Below, in pieces: positions 1,542-61,642 of a stretch of 64,000 nucleotides of DNA. Each line of letters begins with the position of its first letter. Position 1 is the first letter of the stretch. A program made the translations under genes and the position numbers. This DNA is from Opitutales bacterium. GTDB taxonomy: Bacteria; Verrucomicrobiota; Verrucomicrobiia; Opitutales; JAVBMG01. The notes beneath the pieces are model-generated. The model did no database searches. It had not been told where the DNA came from and saw only the letters and a program-made list of their open reading frames with translations. Where the stretch lies: contig JAVBMG010000005.1 in NCBI GenBank assembly GCA_031552815.1, forward strand, positions 130,030-194,029, written 5' to 3'.

Positions 1542-1562
1542 AGAAAATAAAGCGATTTCAAG

Positions 1563-1593
1563 GGTCGGTAGCGGATGCTACCGGCCTTTTTTT
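1563..1593 (+). terminator. Rho-independent terminator after the GH97-like gene
   Basis: Stem cggtagc (1566-1572) / gctaccg (1577-1583), loop ggat, then a T-run at 1587-1593. The arms are the recurrent GGTAGC/ATGCTACCG motif. Confidence 0.8.
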
Positions 1594-1700
1594 ATTCTGT
1601 TGCGACGCTGTTTCAGTAATGGCGGGCGACTTTCTCGGCTTGATTTCAGGCTTTTCGGATGTTTTAATCGTCCCCTTTCATTCAAGCATTTTCTCAAAAT

Positions 1701-17012: not shown

Positions 17013-17022
17013 ATAATTACAG

Positions 17023-17052
17023 ACGGTAGCATGAAAGATGCTGCCGTTTTTT
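17023..17052. terminator. Bidirectional hairpin terminator between convergent proS and the permease gene
   Basis: acggtagcat (17023-17032) / atgctgccgt (17038-17047), a 10-bp stem with one G-U pair, loop gaaag, T-run to 17052. The stem is an inverted pair of the recurrent motif. Confidence 0.8.
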
Positions 17053-17063
17053 GTATGCTGTCA

Positions 17064-18128: not shown

Positions 18129-18215
18129 AACAAGTCAAAGCTATGACGATTCACGGAAATGTAAACAGCGCAATCGATTCAACCGGATCGGGAGACGGTA
18201 GCATGCGTCTGAAAA

Positions 18216-18248
18216 CAAAAAAAACTCATGAATATTCATGAGTTTTTT
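18216..18248. terminator. Bidirectional palindromic terminator downstream of tRNA-Asp
   Basis: A-run, then the perfect palindrome ctcatgaat/attcatgag (18225-18242), then a T-run at 18243-18248. Confidence 0.7.
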
Positions 18249-18259
18249 CCTTAAATTGG

Positions 18260-22821: not shown

Positions 22822-22847
22822 GGGCGGTAACATGCCGCCCTTTTTTT
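22822..22847 (+). terminator. Rho-independent terminator after the PEP-CTERM gene
   Basis: gggcgg (22822-22827) / ccgccc (22835-22840), T-run 22841-22847. It contains the motif variant CGGTAACAT (22825-22833). Confidence 0.8.
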
Positions 22848-25246: not shown

Positions 25247-25280
25247 AAGCTACCATGGAAGCCATGGTAGCTTTATTTTT
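25247..25280. terminator. Bidirectional terminator between convergent hisG and clpB
   Basis: 12-bp perfect stem aagctaccatgg (25247-25258) / ccatggtagctt (25262-25273), A/T runs on both sides. The arms contain the GGTAGC core of the recurrent motif. Confidence 0.8.
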
Positions 25281-37616: not shown

Positions 37617-37640
37617 GCGCCTCTTCCAGAGGCGCTTTTC
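37617..37640 (+). terminator. Rho-independent terminator after the GH109-like gene
   Basis: gcgcctct (37617-37624) / agaggcgc (37628-37635), then tttt. Confidence 0.75.
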
Positions 37641-37735
37641 ATGTTACCGTCAGTTCTGTAACGTGATTTTGCCGGAAAATATAACTTTGCGCTTGCTCCG
37701 TGCGGATTAAATGACTTGATAAGAAAACTTCATTG

Positions 37736-37833: not shown

Positions 37834-37865
37834 AAAAAAGAGACATGGTTTATGTCTCTTTTTTT
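37834..37865. terminator. Bidirectional terminator between tRNA-Ser and the convergent TPR gene
   Basis: A-run, agagacat (37839-37846) / atgtctct (37852-37859), then a T-run at 37860-37865. Confidence 0.8.
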
Positions 37866-37891
37866 ATGTGCGGTAGCATGGGAAAACTAAA

Positions 37892-39761: not shown

Positions 39762-42218
39762 TTAGTTGTCAGGATCGAGAATTTCCCTGCCTTGGCCGTT
39801 GTCAGGACTGACGATGCCTTCTTCCTCAAGAAGATCCATGATACGCGCGGCACGGTTGTACCCGATTTTCATTCTTCGTTGGAGAAAGGAAATGGATGCT
39901 TTTTTGCTGGTACGGATGATCTCAATGGCCTGAGGAATCAATGGGTCATCCCAGTCGCCTGCCTCCATGTTACCGCCTGTACCGTCAGGTTCAGCAGCAG
40001 CGTCCATATGTTCCTGTACTGCTTGGTTGATTTGCGGTCCGCCGTTTCTCTCATGCAGAAAATCAACGATCGCCTGGACTTCTTCATCGCTTACAAATGC
40101 GCATTGGGCGCGCGTCGGTTCGGATGTTCCCGGGGGGACGAAGAGCATATCGCCCCGTCCGATCAATCGTTCGGCTCCGTATTCGTCAAGAATGGTGCGG
40201 CTGTCTATACCGGAGGTTACTTTAAAAGCTATCCGGCTTGGTAGGTTGTTCTTCAGGTTTCCGGTAATGACTTTTACATTGGGACGTTGGGTGGCAAGGA
40301 TAAGATGAATGCCGGCAGCACGCGCCTTGGCAGCCAAACGTTGCACGCCAAGTTCTACTTCGGCAGGATTTACGGCCATCAAATCTGCAAATTCATCGAT
40401 AATACATACGATATAAGGCAGTTTCTTTTCTTCTTCCATGCCTGTTTCGAGATCGCGCGGGACTTCGATATTCATGTTATCATCATGAATGGTTTGGTCG
40501 TCATCCGCTTCCTCGTCATTTTCTTCGACAACACCTTTCTCAATCAGGGCGTTGTATCCTGAGATATTGCGGACCTTCTTTTCCGCGAAGAGATGGTACC
40601 GCCGTTCCATTTCATTGATTAACCACTTGAGTGCTCCGGGTACTTTCTTCGGGTCGGTAACAACAGGGATGAGCATGTGCGGAAGCACGTTGTACATCTG
40701 CATCTCCACGACTTTGGGGTCGACCATGATGAAACGTAATTCTTCCGGGCTGCAGCGGTAGAGGAGGGATGTAATGATTGCATTGATACATACACTTTTC
40801 CCGGATCCGGTAGAGCCTGCAATAAGAAGGTGGGGCATCTTTGCGAGGTCAAGTACGACAGGCTTTCCGCTGACTTCCTTGCCGAGCGCCAGCGGGATGT
40901 CGGCTTTTATTTCGCCCCATATGCGGGACTCCAGTATCTCACGTAACACTACAGGCGATTTTATGCGGTTGGGAACTTCCACGCCCATGCAGCCTTTTTC
41001 CGGTACCATCAAAACGCGGACTCCCTGGGCGTGCATGCCCATGGCAATGTCCGATTCAAGGCTGAGAATGCGGTTTGTGCGCACACCCGGAGCCGGAGAA
41101 ATATCATAGCGTGTGATAACCGGACCTGTATGGATGTCGCCGAGTTCCACTTTTATGTCAAATTGTGCCAAGGTGCGCAGGAGTGATTGTGCCCTTTCGG
41201 CATGATCCTCGGTGGAATCTGTAGCGGGGGCCTGCGGTTCGCTCAGCAGATCGGCCGGCGGAAACACATAATCACCGTGTTTTTTCTGTGGCTTGATGTT
41301 ACCGCGTTCAACCTGCTGATTTGAAATGATACGCAGAGATTTTTCATCGACGGTAGCATTTTTCCTGGCGGTAGCATCAGCAATTTTTCCCGGTTTGTCT
41401 TCTTTTTCCTTAGGTATGGCAGGTAGGGATTCGATGGCCTTGATGTTTTTTTTGGCACCATACTTTTCTTCGTCGGAAAGAAGATCTTCGGGTTTGGTGG
41501 AAGTACGGCTTTTCTTTTTGTTCTCTTCGGTTGCTGGTTCACTGTTTTTCGCAAGAAGGGCTTCTTCTTCAGCCTGACGTTTTTTTTCTGCTGCCGCAGC
41601 AGCACGTATTAATCGGTGTTCACGCCATTTATGGTAAGCTTTTATTATGACGTCAACGGTAAGCAGGAAAATGGAGGAGGTAACCAGGATGACCACTAAA
41701 ACGATAAAGATACCGACAGGACCGATGAATTGTTCTATCGCCTTATGATTAAGCAATTCTCCGAGGACACCGCCGATTCCGCGGGGCAAATAATCATCTT
41801 TTCCCGGTTTTATCCAAGTAAGTAATCCTGAAATGGACACAGTGATGAGAACCATCCACAATAATTTCGACCAACGTGTCCAAGTGGTTCTGAGGCAAAA
41901 GGCGAGTCCCATCCAAGTCGAGAAAATGGAAATCAGCCAAGCGCTTAAGCCAAACCATCCGAATAACCATTCACCGATGGTCCTTCCTATGCGACCGGTC
42001 ATAGGGTGGCTTTCTGTCGATTGCAGAGGACTCCAATCAAGAAGTACAACAAATATGCACAACCCGAACAAAAGAAAAAATGCTGCCCAGAATGGTCGTA
42101 TTTTCGGAGCCGGAGGCAGTATGGATTCTTTAATGTTAGCTTTGCTTGTTTTACTGGAGGCCATGTGTATCGCTTTAATAAACCATGAGATAATGAAAAA
42201 CAAAAGAACTTCCTTCAA
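39762..42218 (-). CDS. ftsK: DNA translocase FtsK
   Basis: N-terminal transmembrane helices, a charged linker, a motor with Walker A GSTGSGKSV, and a C-terminal gamma (winged-helix) domain ISFLQRRMKIGYNRAARIMDLLEEEGIV. The alternative start is the Met at 42164. Confidence 0.95.
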   Translation of the reverse strand: MKEVLLFFIISWFIKAIHMASSKTSKANIKESILPPAPKIRPFWAAFFLLFGLCIFVVLLDWSPLQSTESHPMTGRIGRTIGEWLFGWFGLSAWLISIFSTWMGLAFCLRTTWTRWSKLLWMVLITVSISGLLTWIKPGKDDYLPRGIGGVLGELLNHKAIEQFIGPVGIFIVLVVILVTSSIFLLTVDVIIKAYHKWREHRLIRAAAAAEKKRQAEEEALLAKNSEPATEENKKKSRTSTKPEDLLSDEEKYGAKKNIKAIESLPAIPKEKEDKPGKIADATARKNATVDEKSLRIISNQQVERGNIKPQKKHGDYVFPPADLLSEPQAPATDSTEDHAERAQSLLRTLAQFDIKVELGDIHTGPVITRYDISPAPGVRTNRILSLESDIAMGMHAQGVRVLMVPEKGCMGVEVPNRIKSPVVLREILESRIWGEIKADIPLALGKEVSGKPVVLDLAKMPHLLIAGSTGSGKSVCINAIITSLLYRCSPEELRFIMVDPKVVEMQMYNVLPHMLIPVVTDPKKVPGALKWLINEMERRYHLFAEKKVRNISGYNALIEKGVVEENDEEADDDQTIHDDNMNIEVPRDLETGMEEEKKLPYIVCIIDEFADLMAVNPAEVELGVQRLAAKARAAGIHLILATQRPNVKVITGNLKNNLPSRIAFKVTSGIDSRTILDEYGAERLIGRGDMLFVPPGTSEPTRAQCAFVSDEEVQAIVDFLHERNGGPQINQAVQEHMDAAAEPDGTGGNMEAGDWDDPLIPQAIEIIRTSKKASISFLQRRMKIGYNRAARIMDLLEEEGIVSPDNGQGREILDPDN
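41351..41377 (+). repeat. Two direct copies of the CGGTAGCAT motif 18 bp apart (inside ftsK)
   Basis: cgacggtagcatttttcctggcggtagcatcagc; the GGTAGCAT cores are at 41352-41359 and 41370-41377. Confidence 0.9.
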
Positions 42219-42982: not shown

Positions 42983-45064
42983 ATGAGCGAGGATAACGAA
43001 TCCGAACAAGACAAAACAGAATTTCTACCCGAATCCTTTCCTGACCAGGCGGAACCGGTGAAAAAAACAACCCGGAAACGTGTTTCTAAAAAAACGGACC
43101 CTGAAGAAGGTGAAGTGAAGAAAACGCGTAAACCAAGGAAAAAAGCGACAGAAAAAGCCGAATCAGAGGAAGATGCGGTGGTTGATGCTGTCAATATAGA
43201 AACCGCAGAGAAGGATGTGTCTGATGAAGATGTGTTCAAGGGTGGGGAATCCATCAGTTTTGATCCGGATGAAGAATCCGTGAAAAATACTGACGAGGAG
43301 AAGCCATCTTCGGAAATGCAGGAAGGAAATGTGCCATCCGGAGCTGGAAAACGTGATTTACGGCAGATTATTCTGGCGAGAAGAGGCAATGGCGGAGGAG
43401 ATAGTTCTAATGAGGCTGTTGCCGGACAGAACAAAGAGAAGGAGACGAATCCTGAGGAGAAAGCCGTGCAGGAAAATGCATCCTCTGTTCCTGCCAGAAA
43501 TGAAGATACTCCCAATAATGGGAACAACAAGAAATTTGACCGGAAAGATTGGGGTGACCGGCGTCAGCATACGGATAAAAACCCGCAGAACCAAGGTAAT
43601 AAGGTTCATCAGAAAAGCAGTAGCCAGAAACCCTTTGAAAAGAATAAGGGCAAGGAAAAAGGGCCGAAATTCCGCTCAAAAGGATTTGGTCTGGATGGCG
43701 AACAGAATTTGGACATAGGCGATCTTCCTTATTATGGATTGTTTGCCCAGCAGGAAGAGTTGGAAATGCTGGCATCAACCTTGTGTTCCAGCAATACGGA
43801 GCCGCTGTTGTATAACCACATTTATACTGCGCCGATAAAAGAATTACTGGCTTGGGCGCAAATGAAACAGTTGCAGCTGGGAGGTTCTCCGGGACGCGGG
43901 CAGCTCATTGACGGTATCGTTCAGTTGGCAGCAAATGAACAGCAGGAATTGCGTGCTACCGGTGTTCTTGATATTGTCGAGGACGGATTTGGTCTCTTGG
44001 TTTTCCAATCAGACAGTTATGCCCAGAAATCCCGTAGCGTTTACGTCGACAGAAGCTTTATTAAACGGTACGGATTGCAACGCGGGCACATTCTGACCGT
44101 ACAAATCCATCCGAAACGCGAACATTGTACGTGCCCGTTCTGTATCCGTGTCATTGATGTTATGGGTAAGGACCTTACCAGTTTGGAAGGCGTTACCCCA
44201 TTCCAGGAGCTGACTCCCTATTATCCGTTGGATCGTATCCGTTTGGAAACAGACGGAAAGGGCGGTTGGGACAATATTTCCATGCGTATTGTGGATATGC
44301 TTTCCCCGGTAGGGCTTGGACAGCGCGGGTTGATTGTTGCACCGCCCAGAGTGGGAAAAACCATTCTTTTGCAAGGCATTGCCAATGCGATTCAGTCAAA
44401 CTATCCGAATGTTCATCTGATCGTTTTGCTCATTGATGAGCGTCCCGAAGAAGTAACGGACTTTAAACGGCAGGTAAAAGGTGAGGTGATCTGTTCGACT
44501 TTTGATGAATCAGCGGAAAGTCATTGTCATGCTGCTGAATTGGTTATTGAAAAGGCCCGCAGAATGGTGGAACAGGGGCAGCACGTGGTTATTTTACTTG
44601 ATTCGATTACCCGTTTGGCACGCGCTTATAATACACTTAGCCCAAATAGCGGTAAAATCCTTTCCGGTGGTGTGGAGGCGAATGCCCTGCAAAAGCCCAA
44701 ACGGTTCTTCGGTTCCGCCAGAAACATTGAAGGCGGCGGTAGTCTGACTATCTTGGGAACTGCCCTGGTTGAGACCGGCAGCAAGATGGATGAGGTTATT
44801 TTTGAGGAATTCAAGGGAACCGGGAACATGGAGCTCCATTTGGACAGGGAATTGGCTGATAAACGCATATTTCCGGCCATCAATATGGATAAAAGCGGTA
44901 CCCGAAAGGAGGAACTTTTGTATCATAAAGATGAAATGAATAAAATTTATTCGTTGCGTCGGGCCATGAAAGGTGTTCCATCTACAGACGCAATGGAATT
45001 ATTAATTCAACGTGTTCGTAAAACTCAAACGAATGCCGAATTTTTGATTTCCATGAATCGTTAA
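42983..45064 (+). CDS. rho: Transcription termination factor Rho with a roughly 260-aa charged low-complexity N-terminal extension
   Basis: Core: RNA-binding [15 protein letters not shown], Walker [13 protein letters not shown], and the C-terminal [20 protein letters not shown]. It is 693 aa versus about 420 aa for a canonical Rho. Confidence 0.95.
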
Positions 45065-45087
45065 ACTTTCTACTCTATTAAACACTG

Positions 45088-46812
45088 ATGATCTCAGACG
45101 ACAAATTCTTACTTCAGTTGTTGCAGGACAAGGAAATCCTTGACCCTAAGGTAATCGATGTTGCTCGCAAGCAATTGCAAAGCGAAGGTGTTTCGGAAGA
45201 TTCGCTGGATTCTGCAATCCTTAACCTGCTCGTTGAAAAAAACTATCTGACCTACGACGTTGTTGCTAACGTTCTCGCCGAAGAGTTTAACATAGAACAG
45301 GTTGACATCAGCACATTTACGCCGGACGAGGAGATGCGCCGTTATGTAAGTCGCCGTTTCGCTTTGGACCGCAAGGTGTTTCCGATCTCTATGGAAGGTG
45401 AGGTCTTACGTATAGCGATTATTGATCCGCTTGATCTCGACCCGGTCGAAGAGTTAAGCAATCGCCTGCGTAAATCCGTCGAAACGTATCTTACGACGAT
45501 TCCTGCGATTGAGGATGCCATTGCGCGTTATTATAAGGAAAGCGACGCTGCTGCCGATGACATCGCAAACCAGTTTGCTCAGGCCAAGGAAGAGGGAAAT
45601 GTCGAGGTTGATATCGGCGTTGACGCGAAAACAGCAAAGAGTGCTGAGGATGCGCCGATTATCAAATATGTCCAGATGGTCATCACAGAGGCCATCAAAC
45701 GCCGGGCATCAGATATTCACATGGAGCCGCTTGAAAAACGGTTCCGTGTCCGTTATCGTGTGGACGGCGTGTTACAGGAAGTTGAGAATCCGCCAAAACG
45801 ATTGCAGCCGTCCATTGTTTCCCGCCTCAAGATCATGGCAAACGTCAGCATTGCTGAGAAACGTATTCCGCAGGACGGACGTATCAATATTAAGGTAAAC
45901 GGAAAGAGTATTGACTTGCGTGTGTCTGTGTTGCCTACCGCTTACGGTGAAAGCATCGTCATGCGTATCTTGGACAAGGAAGGACTGAAACTTGGTCTTC
46001 CGCAGCTTGGCTTCTTCAGTGATGACCAAACTATGTTCGAGAAGCTGATTTCCATGCCGGACGGAGTGTTTCTTGTCACAGGACCTACCGGTTCCGGTAA
46101 ATCAACAACCCTTTATTCGGCTCTCAATTACATCAATAAACCCGACAGAAAAATCATTACTGTTGAAGACCCGGTCGAATATGAAATGTCAGGTATCAAT
46201 CAGGTTCAGGTGCGAAGGGATGTCGGTATGACTTTCGCGGCCGCCCTGAGAGCTATGTTGCGCCAAGCGCCCAACATCATCATGATCGGGGAAATTCGTG
46301 ACTTGGAAACTGCGGAAATCGCGGTCCAGGCATCACTTACGGGTCACATGGTGTATAGCACGCTTCACACCAATGACGCTCCCGGTGCAGTGACCCGTCT
46401 GGTAGATATCGGAGTGAAACCCTATCTCGTATCTGCGGCATTGCGCGGAGTATTGGCGCAACGACTCATCCGGAAGATATGCAGTGAGTGTAAGCAACCC
46501 TACATTCCATCGAATGCGGAACTTATGACCATTGGATTGACGGAGTCAGACCGTGCGAATGCAAACTTTATGATCGGCGGTGGATGTACCCGTTGTACAG
46601 GCAGAGGCTATCGCGGTCGTATAGGACTTTTTGAGCTGTTTGTTGTTAATGAGGAAATTCAACAAATGGTTTACGAAAATGCAACCCTTGTCGAATTACG
46701 GCAAAAAACACGCGAACTCGGAATGCGATCTATGCGTGAAGACGGTATTCGTAAGATCACAGCCGGGTTAACCACCATAGCGGAAGTTATATCGGCAACA
46801 GTAGGAGACTAA
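45088..46812 (+). CDS. GspE/PilB-family type II secretion / type IV pilus assembly ATPase (copy 1)
   Basis: T2SSE_N-like N-terminal domain, Walker [14 protein letters not shown], Asp/His boxes, and the tetracysteine CSEC...CTRC motif. Confidence 0.9.
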
Positions 46813-46831
46813 TCTTTAAACCCTTTTGCGT

Positions 46832-48517
46832 ATGTTCGAAGATCACAACTCAGCAATTTACGAAATATTCCAAAACAGCGACATTATCAACCCCGCACAG
46901 CTTCGGGAGTTTGTGGAAACGCAAAACACCACGTCAAAACCTTTGGCGAATGTTATTCTGGAATCGGAGGTTATCACGCGTCAGCAGTTCCTTCAGGCAG
47001 TCGCTCAGTATCTCGGGTACGAATATACGGAAGATATTCCCGATGAGATACCTGAGGAAATGATTCAGATGCTTGGCGCGAGCAAGGCGCACATGTACGG
47101 AGTCGTTCCCATAAAGGCGCAAGGAAGCACGCTTCATCTCGTCGCGATGGATCCGTTTAATTATTCGATCATCGATGACTTATCTTTTGCCCTGAATCGT
47201 GATATCAGCATTATTGTAACAGATCCAAGTCTGGTGGAAGCGTTGTTAAATGAATATTACGGGGAAGAGTCCAGTTACACCTCATTTCTTGATGAAATCG
47301 CGTCCTCATTTTCTGGCGGTGATGATTTAAATAATGACAAGAAGCTGAATGAGGCTGCCAATCAGACTCCGATTATCCGTTTCGTTGATATTGTTTTGCA
47401 ACAGGCAATCAAAGACGGCGCTTCTGACGTTCACTTCGAACCATACGAAGATAGATTCCGTTTGCGTTACCGTATTGACGGTTCTCTGTACGAGATGGCG
47501 CCGCCGCCAAAGAATATGGCCTTGCCGATTGTTTCTCGTATCAAAGTGCTTTCCAATCTGAATATTGCCGAGCAACGTATCCCGCAGGACGGACGTATTA
47601 AGACGACGATTGCAGGAAGACAGGTCGATCTTCGTGTATCTACGCTGCCAACGCAGTTCGGTGAAAGCGTAGTGCTTCGTGTGCTTGACAAATCCGCTGT
47701 GAATCTGGATTTGGACAAGCTCAGTATGGCGGACGAAATTCTGAACAACATCCGTTCAGTCGTAAACCGTCCGAACGGTATCTTTATTGTTACAGGACCT
47801 ACCGGTTCCGGTAAAACGACAACACTTTATTCCGCCTTGCGCGAAGTAAACACTGTAGATACAAAAATTCTGACCGCTGAAGATCCTATCGAATACGAAA
47901 TCGAGGGGATCATGCAGGTCGGCGTGAACCATCAGGTTGGATTAACATTTGCTGCGGCACTTCGCTCCTTCCTGCGTCAAGACCCGGACACGATCATGGT
48001 GGGGGAAATTCGTGACTTGGAAACTGCGCAGATTGCGGTGCAGGCATCGTTGACCGGTCACATTGTGCTTTCTACCTTGCACACGAATGACGCCTCGGGT
48101 GCTGTTACCCGTATGATTGATATGGGTCTGGAGCCGTTCCTTATTTCCGCCTCACTGGAGGCCGTGCTTGCCCAGCGACTCCTTCGCAGGATTTGCCGGC
48201 GTTGTCGCACTGCTTACGAGCCCGATCAAAAGGTCTTGGAAATGCTTGGAGCCGATGCGCTGGAAATTGCCGACAAACAATTCTATTACGGAAAAGGTTG
48301 CCACGAATGCAGTAAAACAGGTTATCGCGGCCGTCAGGGACTTTTCGAAATGATCATGATGACCGATGCTATTCGCGAACTTATCAACGTGAAGTCGCCG
48401 ACTCTGGTCATTAAGCAGAAAGCAATAGAGCAAGGCATGCGTACATTGCGTGACGACGGTTTGCGCGCTATTTTTGATGGTGCTACTACCATTGAAGAAG
48501 TCTTGAAATACACCTAA
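46832..48517 (+). CDS. GspE/PilB-family type II secretion / type IV pilus assembly ATPase (copy 2)
   Basis: Same architecture as copy 1 ([13 protein letters not shown]; CRRC...CHEC). I prefer the ATG at 46832 over the TTG at 46826. The core aligns by eye with copy 1, with many identical residues. Confidence 0.9.
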
Positions 48518-48540
48518 TCTAACAGAAACTTTATCCCAAA

Positions 48541-49791
48541 ATGCCAAAGTATTCTTACACAGCAATCGATTTGTCCGGTAAGCAAAAAACCGGAACCATT
48601 GACGCAGCAAGCGAAGCCGAAGCCAATGCAAAAATCACCGCCATGGGTCTTATGCCCATGAGTGTCGAGGAAGGCAAAGGCAGCGGGAAAAAGTCGTCAA
48701 AGAAACGTGCTACCGGTGGTAGGAAAAAACCACTTCTAGCATTCGGTAGAGCCATTGATGATGAGGGAATGAGTATGTTTACCCGTCAGATGGCCACCTT
48801 GATTCAGGCAAATCTTCCGCTTCTGCGAAGCTTGGAGGTTATGGTGCGCCAGGAGAAAAATGTACGGTTTCGTGGTGTCCTGGAAGATTTGGCGGACAGT
48901 GTCCGTTCCGGTAATCCTTTTTCTGAGGCACTTCAGAAATATCCGGATCTCTTTGACCGTCTCTATGTAAACATGGTGAAGGCCGGTGAGGCCGGTGGTG
49001 TTTTGGACGTGGTTCTTTCCCGTTTGGCTAAGTTCAAGGAAAACGCCCTCCGTCTGAATAAGAAAGTGAAATCAGCCATGGTGTATCCGATGGTTGTTAT
49101 CGGCGTGGCGGTTATCATTGTTATCGTGTTGATGTTGGTGGTTGTTCCGAAGTTTGAAAACATCTTCCAGGATATGTTGAAAGGAGCCGCATTGCCTGCG
49201 CCCACGCAATTGCTGATTGACGCCAGTAACTTTGTTCAAAACCATGCGATAGTCACTCTTGGCTTTTTGATCGGTATATGGATCGGCTTTAAGGTTTTCC
49301 TGAAGACGGAATTTGGTCAACGCACGATGGATGGTCTCGTGCTCAAGTTGCCGAAGATCAGTGATTTGGCTGCAAAAGTAAATATCAGCCGTTTCACAAG
49401 AACCTTCGGAACATTGCTTGCCAGCGGTGTTCCTATTTTGGATGCTCTGAATATCACCAAGGAGGTTGTCGGAAATGCAAAATTCCGTGACGCTATTTCC
49501 CGTATTCATGATGCTGTTCGTGACGGTGAACCTATTTCCGCACCGATGGAACGTGAAAAAATATTCCCGTCCATTGTATCAAGCATGGTGGATGTGGGTG
49601 AAGAAACGGGTGAACTTTCGAACATGTTGAACCGTATTGCGGACAACTATGACGAAGACGTGGACAATGCTGTTTCCAGTATTACGTCAATTATTGAACC
49701 GATCATGATTGTGGTCTTGGCTTTGATCGTCGGTTACGTTGTTATCGCGCTCTTTATGCCAATCGTTGAAATTATTCAGAACGTTAAATAA
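48541..49791 (+). CDS. GspF/PilC-family inner-membrane platform protein
   Basis: 416 aa, two repeated GspF domains with three transmembrane segments, [20 protein letters not shown] motif. Confidence 0.9.
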
Positions 49792-49805
49792 TCCGACGGT
49801 AGCAT

Positions 49806-49837
49806 CAAAAAAACCTCCGCGGCAGTGGAGGTTTTTT
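49806..49837 (+). terminator. Rho-independent terminator after the pilus/secretion genes
   Basis: cctccgc (49813-49819) / gtggagg (49824-49830) with one G-U pair, T-run 49831-49837. A motif copy at 49797-49804 precedes it. Confidence 0.8.
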
Positions 49838-49890
49838 TGTGAGGACAGTTCCTGTTTTGGCAATAATTTCCATTTAAATACATAAAATCA

Positions 49891-60852: not shown

Positions 60853-61642
60853 GTGCTCTGATTTCCTTCGGATAGATGCCGAGGGTGACGTATCCGTATT
60901 GGCTTGAAACCTGTTTTTCCGTTGCCACATGAAAAGCGTCTGCAACCCGTTCAGGTGATAAACAGTCTTCAACTTTGCCGGTAGCATGAATGCTGCCGTT
61001 CATTAACATGATTGCATAGTCGGCGAAGTGGTAGGCCAGGTTCAGATCATGAACAACCGCCAGAATCGTAACACCCTTATGCTTCAGTTCCCGGATGGTG
61101 TGGAGGCAGGCAAACTGATGCTCGATATCGAGGTTTGAGGTTGGTTCATCAAGAATAAGGCAACCTGCCGGATTATCCAGTCCGCCCAGTTGCATCAGTG
61201 CGCGCGCCAGTAAAACGCGCTGTTTCTCGCCCGAGGAAAGCAGCGGATAGAGACGGCTTCTGATGGAAGCGATATCCATCGCTTCCAGCACCGCATTGAG
61301 TTCGGTTAATGCGTCCCGTTTGAAACGGTGAGCATTCGGCTCCATTCCGAAGCGGACCACTTCTTCTACGGTGAAAGCAAACGGGAGGCTGCTCTCCTGC
61401 AAGACGACAGCACGTTTTTCCGCCAGTGTTTCCGTATCCCATGTCTGCAACGGCCGGTTGTCGAAAGTAATGCTGCCGCCGTGCGGCGTAATCAATCCCG
61501 TCATTATTTTCAGCAAGGTTGATTTTCCGGCACCGTTGTTACCGACGATCACGGTAAAATGATCGCGCGGAACAGTAAAGCTCACGTCCTTTAATATTTC
61601 GGTGCCGTCAGGCTGAAAATGAATATTGGATACCTGAAACAT
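60836..61642 (-). CDS. ABC transporter ATP-binding protein, iron-chelate/haem/B12 (FecE/HmuV) type
   Basis: Walker A GNNGAGKSTLL, signature LSSGEKQRVLLARAL, Walker B ILDEPTSNLD. It is paired with a FecCD permease. Confidence 0.85.
   Translation of the reverse strand: MFQVSNIHFQPDGTEILKDVSFTVPRDHFTVIVGNNGAGKSTLLKIMTGLITPHGGSITFDNRPLQTWDTETLAEKRAVVLQESSLPFAFTVEEVVRFGMEPNAHRFKRDALTELNAVLEAMDIASIRSRLYPLLSSGEKQRVLLARALMQLGGLDNPAGCLILDEPTSNLDIEHQFACLHTIRELKHKGVTILAVVHDLNLAYHFADYAIMLMNGSIHATGKVEDCLSPERVADAFHVATEKQVSSQYGYVTLGIYPKEIRAQKKTR
60979..60998. repeat. Inverted motif pair inside a coding region
   Basis: cggtagcat (60979-60987) ga atgctgccg (60990-60998). The same imperfect palindrome forms the proS terminator at 17023-17047. 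Confidence 0.85.

Follow-up and report, generated by a model that had tools for sequence, protein, structure and literature searches.

Sequence-biased DNA uptake is, to our knowledge, experimentally known from two proteobacterial families only, and whether the uptake words themselves arise through molecular drive or through selection is a matter of ongoing debate. The words concerned are the DUS of the Neisseriaceae (GCCGTCTGAA and its dialects) and the USS of the Pasteurellaceae (AAGTGCGGT or ACAAGCGGT). Other over-represented chromosomal words include HIP1 (GCGATCGC) of the cyanobacteria, a palindrome linked to cognate methyltransferases, as well as the Chi and KOPS octamers. Models of mutational or repair bias have been proposed both for the HIP1 palindrome and for the very-short-patch repair words of E. 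coli. The stretch of DNA analysed here (64 kb, hereafter the window) carries an abundant word of its own, with consensus gRCGGTAGCAT, which spans 9–10 bases, is non-palindromic, occurs about once per 1.8 kb (about 0.57 consensus copies per kb) and, judged by analogy with the systems above, behaves like an uptake sequence.

The abundance of this word far exceeds expectation, whichever form of it is counted. The 9-mer CGGTAGCAT, together with its reverse complement ATGCTACCG, is the most frequent 9-mer of the window (36 copies), the 7-mer CGGTAGC is present 55 times where shuffled sequences contain 3.39 ± 1.93 copies, and ACGGTAGCAT with at most one mismatch is found 67 times for 2.49 expected. 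At the same tolerance of one mismatch, CGGTAGCAT has 104 copies with a mean spacing of 616 nt, and the copies are distributed in a roughly even, Poisson-like manner (CV of 0.88–1.04). The sequence logo reaches approximately g-R-CGGTAGCAT; conservation ends at about 10–11 nt and the flanks outside are random. Positions 1–3, 5 and 7 of the word are near-invariant, and the two transition variants CGGCAGCAT and CGGTAACAT are each present 15 times, compared with 4.3 and 6.0 copies in shuffles. This graded profile of variation gives the word the appearance of a site recognised by a protein. Furthermore, the word is again the top 9-mer in three other stretches of the source organism (30 kb in total), which brings the pooled count to 54 copies in 94 kb. 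Two classes of repeat were considered and rejected: a REP- or MITE-type intergenic repeat, as the conserved unit measures only about 10–11 nt between random flanks and 86% of the copies are genic, and a HIP1-type palindrome, as CGGTAGCAT differs from its own reverse complement.

Two regions of the source organism deserve a description of their own. The interval 43953–48707 of the window (4.75 kb), which takes in the C-terminal half of the Rho gene and the two genes for PilB-type ATPases, contains no copy of the word even with one mismatch; either these very conserved proteins leave no space for it or the stretch was recently acquired. The Rho protein itself (42983–45064, 693 aa) has its RNA-binding domain starting at residue 326 and hence a long N-terminal extension. 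The second region, located about 3–4 kb upstream of the start of the window (L205, 4556–5245), is an intergenic segment of 690 nt with two copies of a repeat of about 90 nt as judged by eye, reading caaggcagtcgctacgc.cggtaac.gtctgaa...ttctttg.ggct, and each repeat copy is followed within a few nucleotides by a copy of the word, one of them consensus and the other a variant.

The distribution of the word between genes and spacers indicates the level at which it is imposed. Of the 36 window copies of the 9-mer, 31 (86%) are genic; they use both orientations and four frame classes, and the frame in which the word would read TAG is empty. When synonymous codons were shuffled so that proteins and codon usage were both kept, the mean count fell to 6.05 copies, of which 5 are the fixed intergenic ones; approximately one genic copy is thus expected where 31 are observed, a genic enrichment of roughly 30-fold which shows that the word is imposed at the DNA level. 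On the other hand, intergenic DNA makes up 6.8% of the pooled sequence yet holds 15% of the consensus copies, and the intergenic density is three times that of the genes. These results bear directly on the proposal that amino-acid or codon-pair usage alone generates the word, which would then carry no DNA signal at all. Such a proposal could draw on the mostly genic location of the copies and on the dominance of a few frames (x-A-T-x, G-S-I and T/A-V-A), but it is refuted by the synonymous shuffles and is further contradicted by the use of both orientations and four frames and by the higher intergenic density, so that we attribute to it a negligible probability.

A protein-level look was restricted to four word sites, and the sites below illustrate how the word is accommodated. 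At the orthologous proS site, the window reads GAT GCT GCC GTG (D-A-A-V) and a close relative, described below as L082, reads the consensus GAT GCT ACC GTT (D-A-T-V), within a segment that is freely variable among 22 other ProRS sequences. In NuoG of the window, GGT GCT ACC GTG (G-A-T-V) replaces x-S-S-V; the position of the Thr is occupied by Ser in 21 of 23 homologues and that of the Ala by Ser, Met or Gln. At a second NuoG site, AAT GCT ACC GCG (N-A-T-A) stands in place of the N-A-T-S of the homologues (23 compared). The word therefore occupies sites where the ancestral peptide was already close to one of its readings, conservative replacements completing it with some cost to the protein. 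Findlay and Redfield described the same behaviour in proteins for USS and DUS. A further genic arrangement is the following:

41351–41377, plus strand: a pair of consensus copies in direct orientation, separated by 18 nt and lying within a poorly conserved linker of FtsK, the gene strand encoding D-A-T-A...N-A-T-V

The orientation of the copies was then considered with respect to replication. The GC skew lies between +0.07 and +0.12 in every 8-kb bin regardless of gene strand, and this uniformity places the window on one replichore. CGGTAGC is found 34 times on the plus strand and 21 times on the minus strand (62% on the leading strand), which does not depart from an even distribution (P = 0.10), and the mild excess follows from the G-richer composition of the leading strand. 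The word is therefore devoid of replication-strand polarity. This result weighs on the suggestion of a polar signal of the Chi type (RecBCD/AddAB) or of the KOPS type (FtsK), in favour of which one may invoke the presence in the window of an FtsK with a gamma domain and the slight leading-strand excess. Indeed, the counts reject a KOPS-like polarity of 90% (P = 3e-8) and disfavour a Chi-like polarity of 75% (P = 0.02), and a genic enrichment of about 30-fold is far beyond that of any known Chi or KOPS; such a signal is largely refuted and can be considered extremely improbable.

The taxonomic distribution of the word is narrow. The window has matches among the Logan contigs of run SRR23967709. 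The best ProS matches of the source organism belong to Opitutae-type Verrucomicrobiota, with at most 75% identity among the matches listed apart from one locus, and among species-representative genomes the best identity among the matches listed is 74%. The best explanation is that the source is a deep-branching, Opitutae-like member of the Verrucomicrobiota. The exception is L082, a contig from SRR26434396 and the only close relative among the matches listed (ProS identity of 91%, GC content of 43%, no synteny around proS). In this contig the word again heads the list of 9-mers, with 8 copies over 12.4 kb and likewise with R at position -1, so the two organisms have the word in common yet differ by about 5 points in GC. 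By contrast with these two, the 80 loci whose ProS has 62–74% identity among the matches listed contain 0–1 copies each. A search with NuoG for the nuo operon of the relative returned nothing above 58% identity. In the literature, a search with the word sequence retrieved primers only, and a second search found no link between uptake sequences and Verrucomicrobiota.

Several other sequences surfaced during this survey. Among the 80 unrelated ProS loci screened, L077 (QHPD01000102.1, positions 1–21512, from the MAG Verrucomicrobia bacterium AV37) is the sole standout of this type at moderate GC: it contains a different dispersed word, (A)AGATCGACA(T), also given as AAGATCGACA, with 14 copies in 21.5 kb where about 0.16 are expected by chance, 7 on each strand, nearly all genic and with variable flanks. 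The frequent 9-mers of L069 (a Chthoniobacterales MAG) and of L074 (Desulfobotulus alkaliphilus) were set aside as REP-like elements with conserved flanks, another kind of repeat; those of L069 form inverted pairs about 65 nt apart. Also excluded were L159 (Ga0302117_10065827, 426–1678), a tandem array from an unrelated lineage with a period of about 49 nt and one CGGTAGCAT per unit (22 copies in 1.7 kb), and four contigs (L114, L088, L115 and L162) that have the GAAAG loop of the proS hairpin and zero homologues of the window proteins, the shared loop being taken as a coincidence. Finally, a metagenome scan for perfect convergent pairs retrieved 120 contigs, essentially all of them isolated chance palindromes without other copies, and the source lineage was absent from them.

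Two further explanations for the word as a whole can be weighed against these data. According to the first, which is the main rival of an uptake-based reading, a biased mutation or repair process tied to a DNA-modification system would drive the word in the absence of uptake, terminators being simply free to drift toward it. The enrichment indeed acts at the DNA level whatever the orientation, single transitions are the commonest variants, and the window encodes two base-excision glycosylases, Tag and MPG, which admittedly belong to the common housekeeping repertoire. However, the word lacks the palindromic symmetry of HIP1, neither a methyltransferase nor a Vsr-type gene was found in the 94 kb, the word has been kept in two species about 5 GC points apart, and the one-off transition variants are enriched and not depleted as the source of a conversion would be, with the reservation that these counts are small. 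We regard this explanation as unlikely. According to the second, the word would be bound by some abundant protein of the chromosome (nucleoid-associated, condensin-loading or self-marking) and would be kept for chromosome function, in line with its graded information content, the Poisson-like spacing of the copies and its conservation in two species. But none of the known nucleoid or partition systems is known to read an asymmetric, unpolar 9–10-mer at about one copy per 1.8 kb, selection on individual sites could hardly prevail over conserved NuoG residues, being far too weak unless helped by a drive, and a stretch of 4.75 kb does without the word; a role of this kind is clearly improbable.

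Besides genes, the word is found in and next to terminators, which were called in the window as a hairpin followed by a T-tract (10–11 intergenic loci). Pfam supports the labels of the GH97, ProRS, ArsP-type permease, HisG, ClpB and ABC ATPase genes given in the initial annotation, and the PEP-CTERM label is consistent with a C-terminal LPEPSS, a hydrophobic stretch and an RRRKSKR tail. The relevant loci are:

1560–1596, plus strand: intrinsic terminator of the GH97 gene (Pfam GH97 12–1541), with stem AAGGGTCGGTAGC / GCTACCGGCCTTT, then U7
17021–17055, plus strand: intrinsic terminator of proS, with a consensus copy at 17024–17032 (plus), a T>C variant at 17038–17046 (minus), a GAAAG loop and U6
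18196–18249, minus strand: terminator after tRNA-Asp (18218–18249) and consensus copy at 18196–18204, gap of 14 nt, the copy lying in a small hairpin of 5 bp
22822–22847, plus strand: terminator of the PEP-CTERM gene, -14.7 kcal/mol, z = -3.9, U7
25247–25273, strand not assigned: hisG–clpB intergenic hairpin, probable terminator for either strand, -18.5 kcal/mol, arms TGGTAGCTT
37617–37649, plus strand: terminator of the GH109-like gene (37617–37635) and variant ATGTTACCG at 37641–37649, gap of 6 nt
37836–37879, plus strand: terminator after tRNA-Ser (37836–37862), convergent with a TPR gene, and consensus copy at 37871–37879, gap of 9 nt
49797–49841, plus strand: consensus copy at 49797–49805, past the stop codon of the PilC-type gene and ahead of its terminator hairpin at 49811–49834, -22.1 kcal/mol

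In two of these loci the word is present in both arms of the stem. The hairpin downstream of the GH97 gene, described initially as CGGTAGC-GGAT-GCTACCG at 1566–1583 and followed by T7, is confirmed: it combines the 7-mer core (1566–1572, plus strand) with a full 9-mer (1575–1583, minus strand), extends over 1560–1589 with a folding energy of -21.6 kcal/mol (z = -5.4), starts 19 nt past the stop codon and was called by two scans. The proS hairpin (17021–17049) is of similar quality on the plus strand (-18.9 kcal/mol, z = -5.4, 9 nt past the proS stop codon, called by two scans). Its inner part at 17023–17047, ACGGTAGCAT-GAAAG-ATGCTGCCGT followed by TTTTTT, 11 nt past the stop, had been presented as a bidirectional terminator shared by proS and the permease gene; the proS half of this claim holds, but the hairpin is not bidirectional: on the minus strand the stem contains a C.A mismatch, reaches -10.5 kcal/mol only and has no U-tract. 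G.U wobbles are present in both the GH97 and the proS stem, with C.A mismatches in their place on the opposite strand. Since such wobbles pair only in the RNA of the plus strand, they point to selection on RNA structure and not on a DNA palindrome. These two hairpins are best explained as ordinary Rho-independent terminators, predicted to act in the plus direction.

The other hairpins relate to the word in looser ways. The variant announced in the PEP-CTERM terminator is present: the hairpin 22822–22840 (GGGCGGTAACATGCCGCCC plus T7) contains a single variant copy, CGGTAACAT (22825–22833), that runs across the 5' arm and the loop, and no inverted pair. The single copies reported beside terminators are also found, at 37871 (given as 37872) and at 49797, 9 and 6 nt from their hairpins. 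The hairpin between hisG and clpB is real, but its status as an example of the word does not stand, as its arms are two mismatches away and hold only GGTAGC; TGGTAGC is moreover at background in the window (7 observed, 7.6 expected), hence this hairpin does not count as a copy. As a separate observation, each of the two tRNA genes, tRNA-Asp (minus strand, palindrome at 18218–18249) and tRNA-Ser (plus strand, palindrome at 37836–37862), is followed by a perfect AT-rich palindrome with runs of A and T on its sides, and these could ensure bidirectional termination.

The association between word and terminators was evaluated statistically. Three terminator loci of the window have a copy with at most one mismatch in the stem, and 7 of 10 have a copy within 14 nt, compared with a null mean of 1.9 (P of about 4e-4) obtained by re-dealing the 13 intergenic copies over intergenic positions, with edge-to-edge gaps and six distances, the cut-off of 14 nt having been picked after the data were seen and the association having been noticed in the very window where it was tested. 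In a version with stricter placement, where the whole 9-mer has to lie within 13 nt of the terminator, P rises to 0.056. For comparison, one variant copy lies in the roughly 1 kb of spacer between divergent promoters. Outside the window, the two flanks (18 kb) contain zero hairpin-plus-T-tract terminators at the stricter cut-off of -9 kcal/mol used as pooling threshold, the additional 12.3 kb from the source organism (L207) has copies at 0 of 3 terminators by the caller and 0 of 4 by eye, and one terminator in the relative L082 is without a copy. The initial annotation held that the word builds terminators: this is borne out by the two U-tract hairpins with the word in both arms, while the association is absent from the terminators called elsewhere in the source organism. 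It rests on the discovery window alone and was not replicated in independent source-organism sequence. Likewise, the measure put forward with that claim, the share of terminator stems containing the word, amounts to 3 of 14 when the window, flanks and L207 are pooled, above the null of 1.23 and short of significance (P = 0.11); a copy lies within 14 nt at 8 of the 14 loci. Earlier studies reported that 13–29% of terminators hold an uptake sequence in DUS and USS systems, and the pooled 3/14 falls inside this range, which makes the parallel with Neisseria and Haemophilus drawn at the outset an apt one.

A stronger claim of the initial annotation was that the inverted pair itself is selected as DNA, on the grounds that an imperfect palindrome also lies inside a gene:

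60979–60998, minus strand: imperfect inverted pair in the ABC ATPase gene, CGGTAGCAT-GA-ATGCTGCCG, encoding N-G-S-I-H-A-T-G (residues about 215–222)

The palindrome is present as described. If inverted pairs were favoured as a doubled uptake signal or as a palindrome bound by a protein, one would account for three convergent arrangements with an identical order of arms (1566/1577, 17024/17038 and 60979/60990), all the more so as chance alone predicts roughly 0.1 pair in intergenic DNA. However, convergent pairs with at most one mismatch and within 14 nt number 2 in the window against 0.81 by random placement (P = 0.20), and 2 against 1.26 in the 107 kb of both organisms (P = 0.36). The pair 1566/1577 lies outside this count, one of its arms being the 7-mer core only, and its addition leaves the conclusion unchanged. 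The single divergent pair and the two direct pairs of the window also match expectation, no perfect pair of 9-mers exists in the 107 kb, and the flanks, L207 and the relative yielded no pair. Moreover, both intergenic pairs keep their pairing by G.U wobbles, which are useful to the RNA of one strand only. As for the genic pair, it uses the two commonest frames of the word (G-S-I in sense and x-A-T-x in antisense), its fold in the mRNA sense (-8.2 kcal/mol, z = -0.7) is no better than that of shuffled sequences, and, the number of pairs being at random expectation, it fits chance; we judge it to be two ordinary genic copies brought together by chance adjacency. One should also keep in mind that a stem containing the word necessarily contains its complement, so that each terminator pair is a single event and not an independent observation. 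The claim of selection on pairs thus fails, with pair counts at random expectation, a genic pair devoid of structure and wobbles directed to RNA, and selection of this kind seems quite doubtful. In sum, the initial observation is partly confirmed and the interpretation attached to it partly supported.

The following scenario would then account for the data. Some DNA-level process favouring gRCGGTAGCAT would have spread the word wherever it is tolerated. Within genes, it would have been completed through codon choice and conservative amino-acid replacements, and between genes it would have built up in unconstrained DNA near gene ends. The sequence of a terminator stem is presumably free provided that the arms pair; stems being tolerant, some would have come to contain the word, its complement following automatically. 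We infer that the most likely driver of this process is sequence-biased uptake of DNA with subsequent recombination, along the lines of the molecular-drive model proposed for the DUS of Neisseriaceae and the USS of Pasteurellaceae, and by analogy this combination appears as the only established process known to yield the full pattern. Taken as a whole, this scenario of a DNA-level word, with terminators as tolerant sites and an uptake-driven spread, is the best explanation at hand and has in our opinion about an even chance of being correct. The uptake reading of the word, considered by itself, comes close to even chances or falls slightly short of them. As regards the machinery, the 94 kb encode two PilB-type ATPases and one PilC, which could equally serve type II secretion, and contain no ComEA, ComEC, DprA, secretin or candidate receptor pilin. 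The genes in question (45088–49791) are organised as tandem PilB/GspE-type ATPases with MshEN (574 and 563 aa) followed by PilC/GspF, with no adjoining gene for a pilin, a secretin or a prepilin peptidase. That the lineage evolved its own DUS, gRCGGTAGCAT, read by a putative receptor on a type IV pilus-like machine, is a tentative proposal, by analogy plausible but somewhat less than evenly probable.

Should this be the case, uptake-sequence-biased transformation would have arisen independently for a third time, and here for the first time outside Proteobacteria, a prospect that we rate at a little under even chances. With a word statistically indistinguishable from known uptake sequences in an uncultured lineage, and another in a second MAG of the phylum, the phenomenon would be broader than thought, an independent system would become available for receptor hunting, and the word would offer a genome-intrinsic marker for metagenome binning and for the detection of recently acquired DNA. 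The separate word of L077 suggests that self-recognition words recur in Verrucomicrobiota. Word-built terminators, for their part, are an expected corollary of a DUS/USS-like word and add little on their own; the interest resides in the word itself, in a phylum for which the literature searched describes no counterpart.

Compared with known systems, the word shares with the Chi and KOPS octamers the nature of an over-represented short chromosomal word read by DNA-processing machines in their case, but those are strongly co-oriented and enriched a few-fold, whereas the word described here is unoriented and enriched roughly 30-fold in genes. It resembles HIP1 by its hyper-abundance, with about one copy per kb, by its presence both within and between genes and by its restriction to a lineage, and differs from it by being asymmetric and by the lack of a methyltransferase in the 94 kb. 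With respect to terminators containing DUS or USS, the likeness lies in a GC-rich stem where the word pairs with its complement, a loop of 4–5 nt, a U-tract and a position directly after the stop codon; the arms are imperfect here (7-mer core at 1566, T>C variant at 17038), the stems are one-directional and the organism also encodes Rho. Relative to DUS and USS themselves, the word has another sequence, belongs to another phylum (Verrucomicrobiota and not Proteobacteria), is 86% genic where published values are 35–65%, and forms no perfect inverted pairs, in an organism known from metagenome assemblies alone. The resemblances are nevertheless extensive: DUS and USS are, like this word, asymmetric, 9–12 nt long and present at about one copy per kb, show no strand polarity, use several genic frames while avoiding stop frames and settling at permissive residues, are surrounded by a halo of one-off variants, may further resemble it in their intergenic enrichment and in contributing inverted copies to some terminator stems (13–29% as published, 3/14 here), and are common to related species and absent from distant ones.
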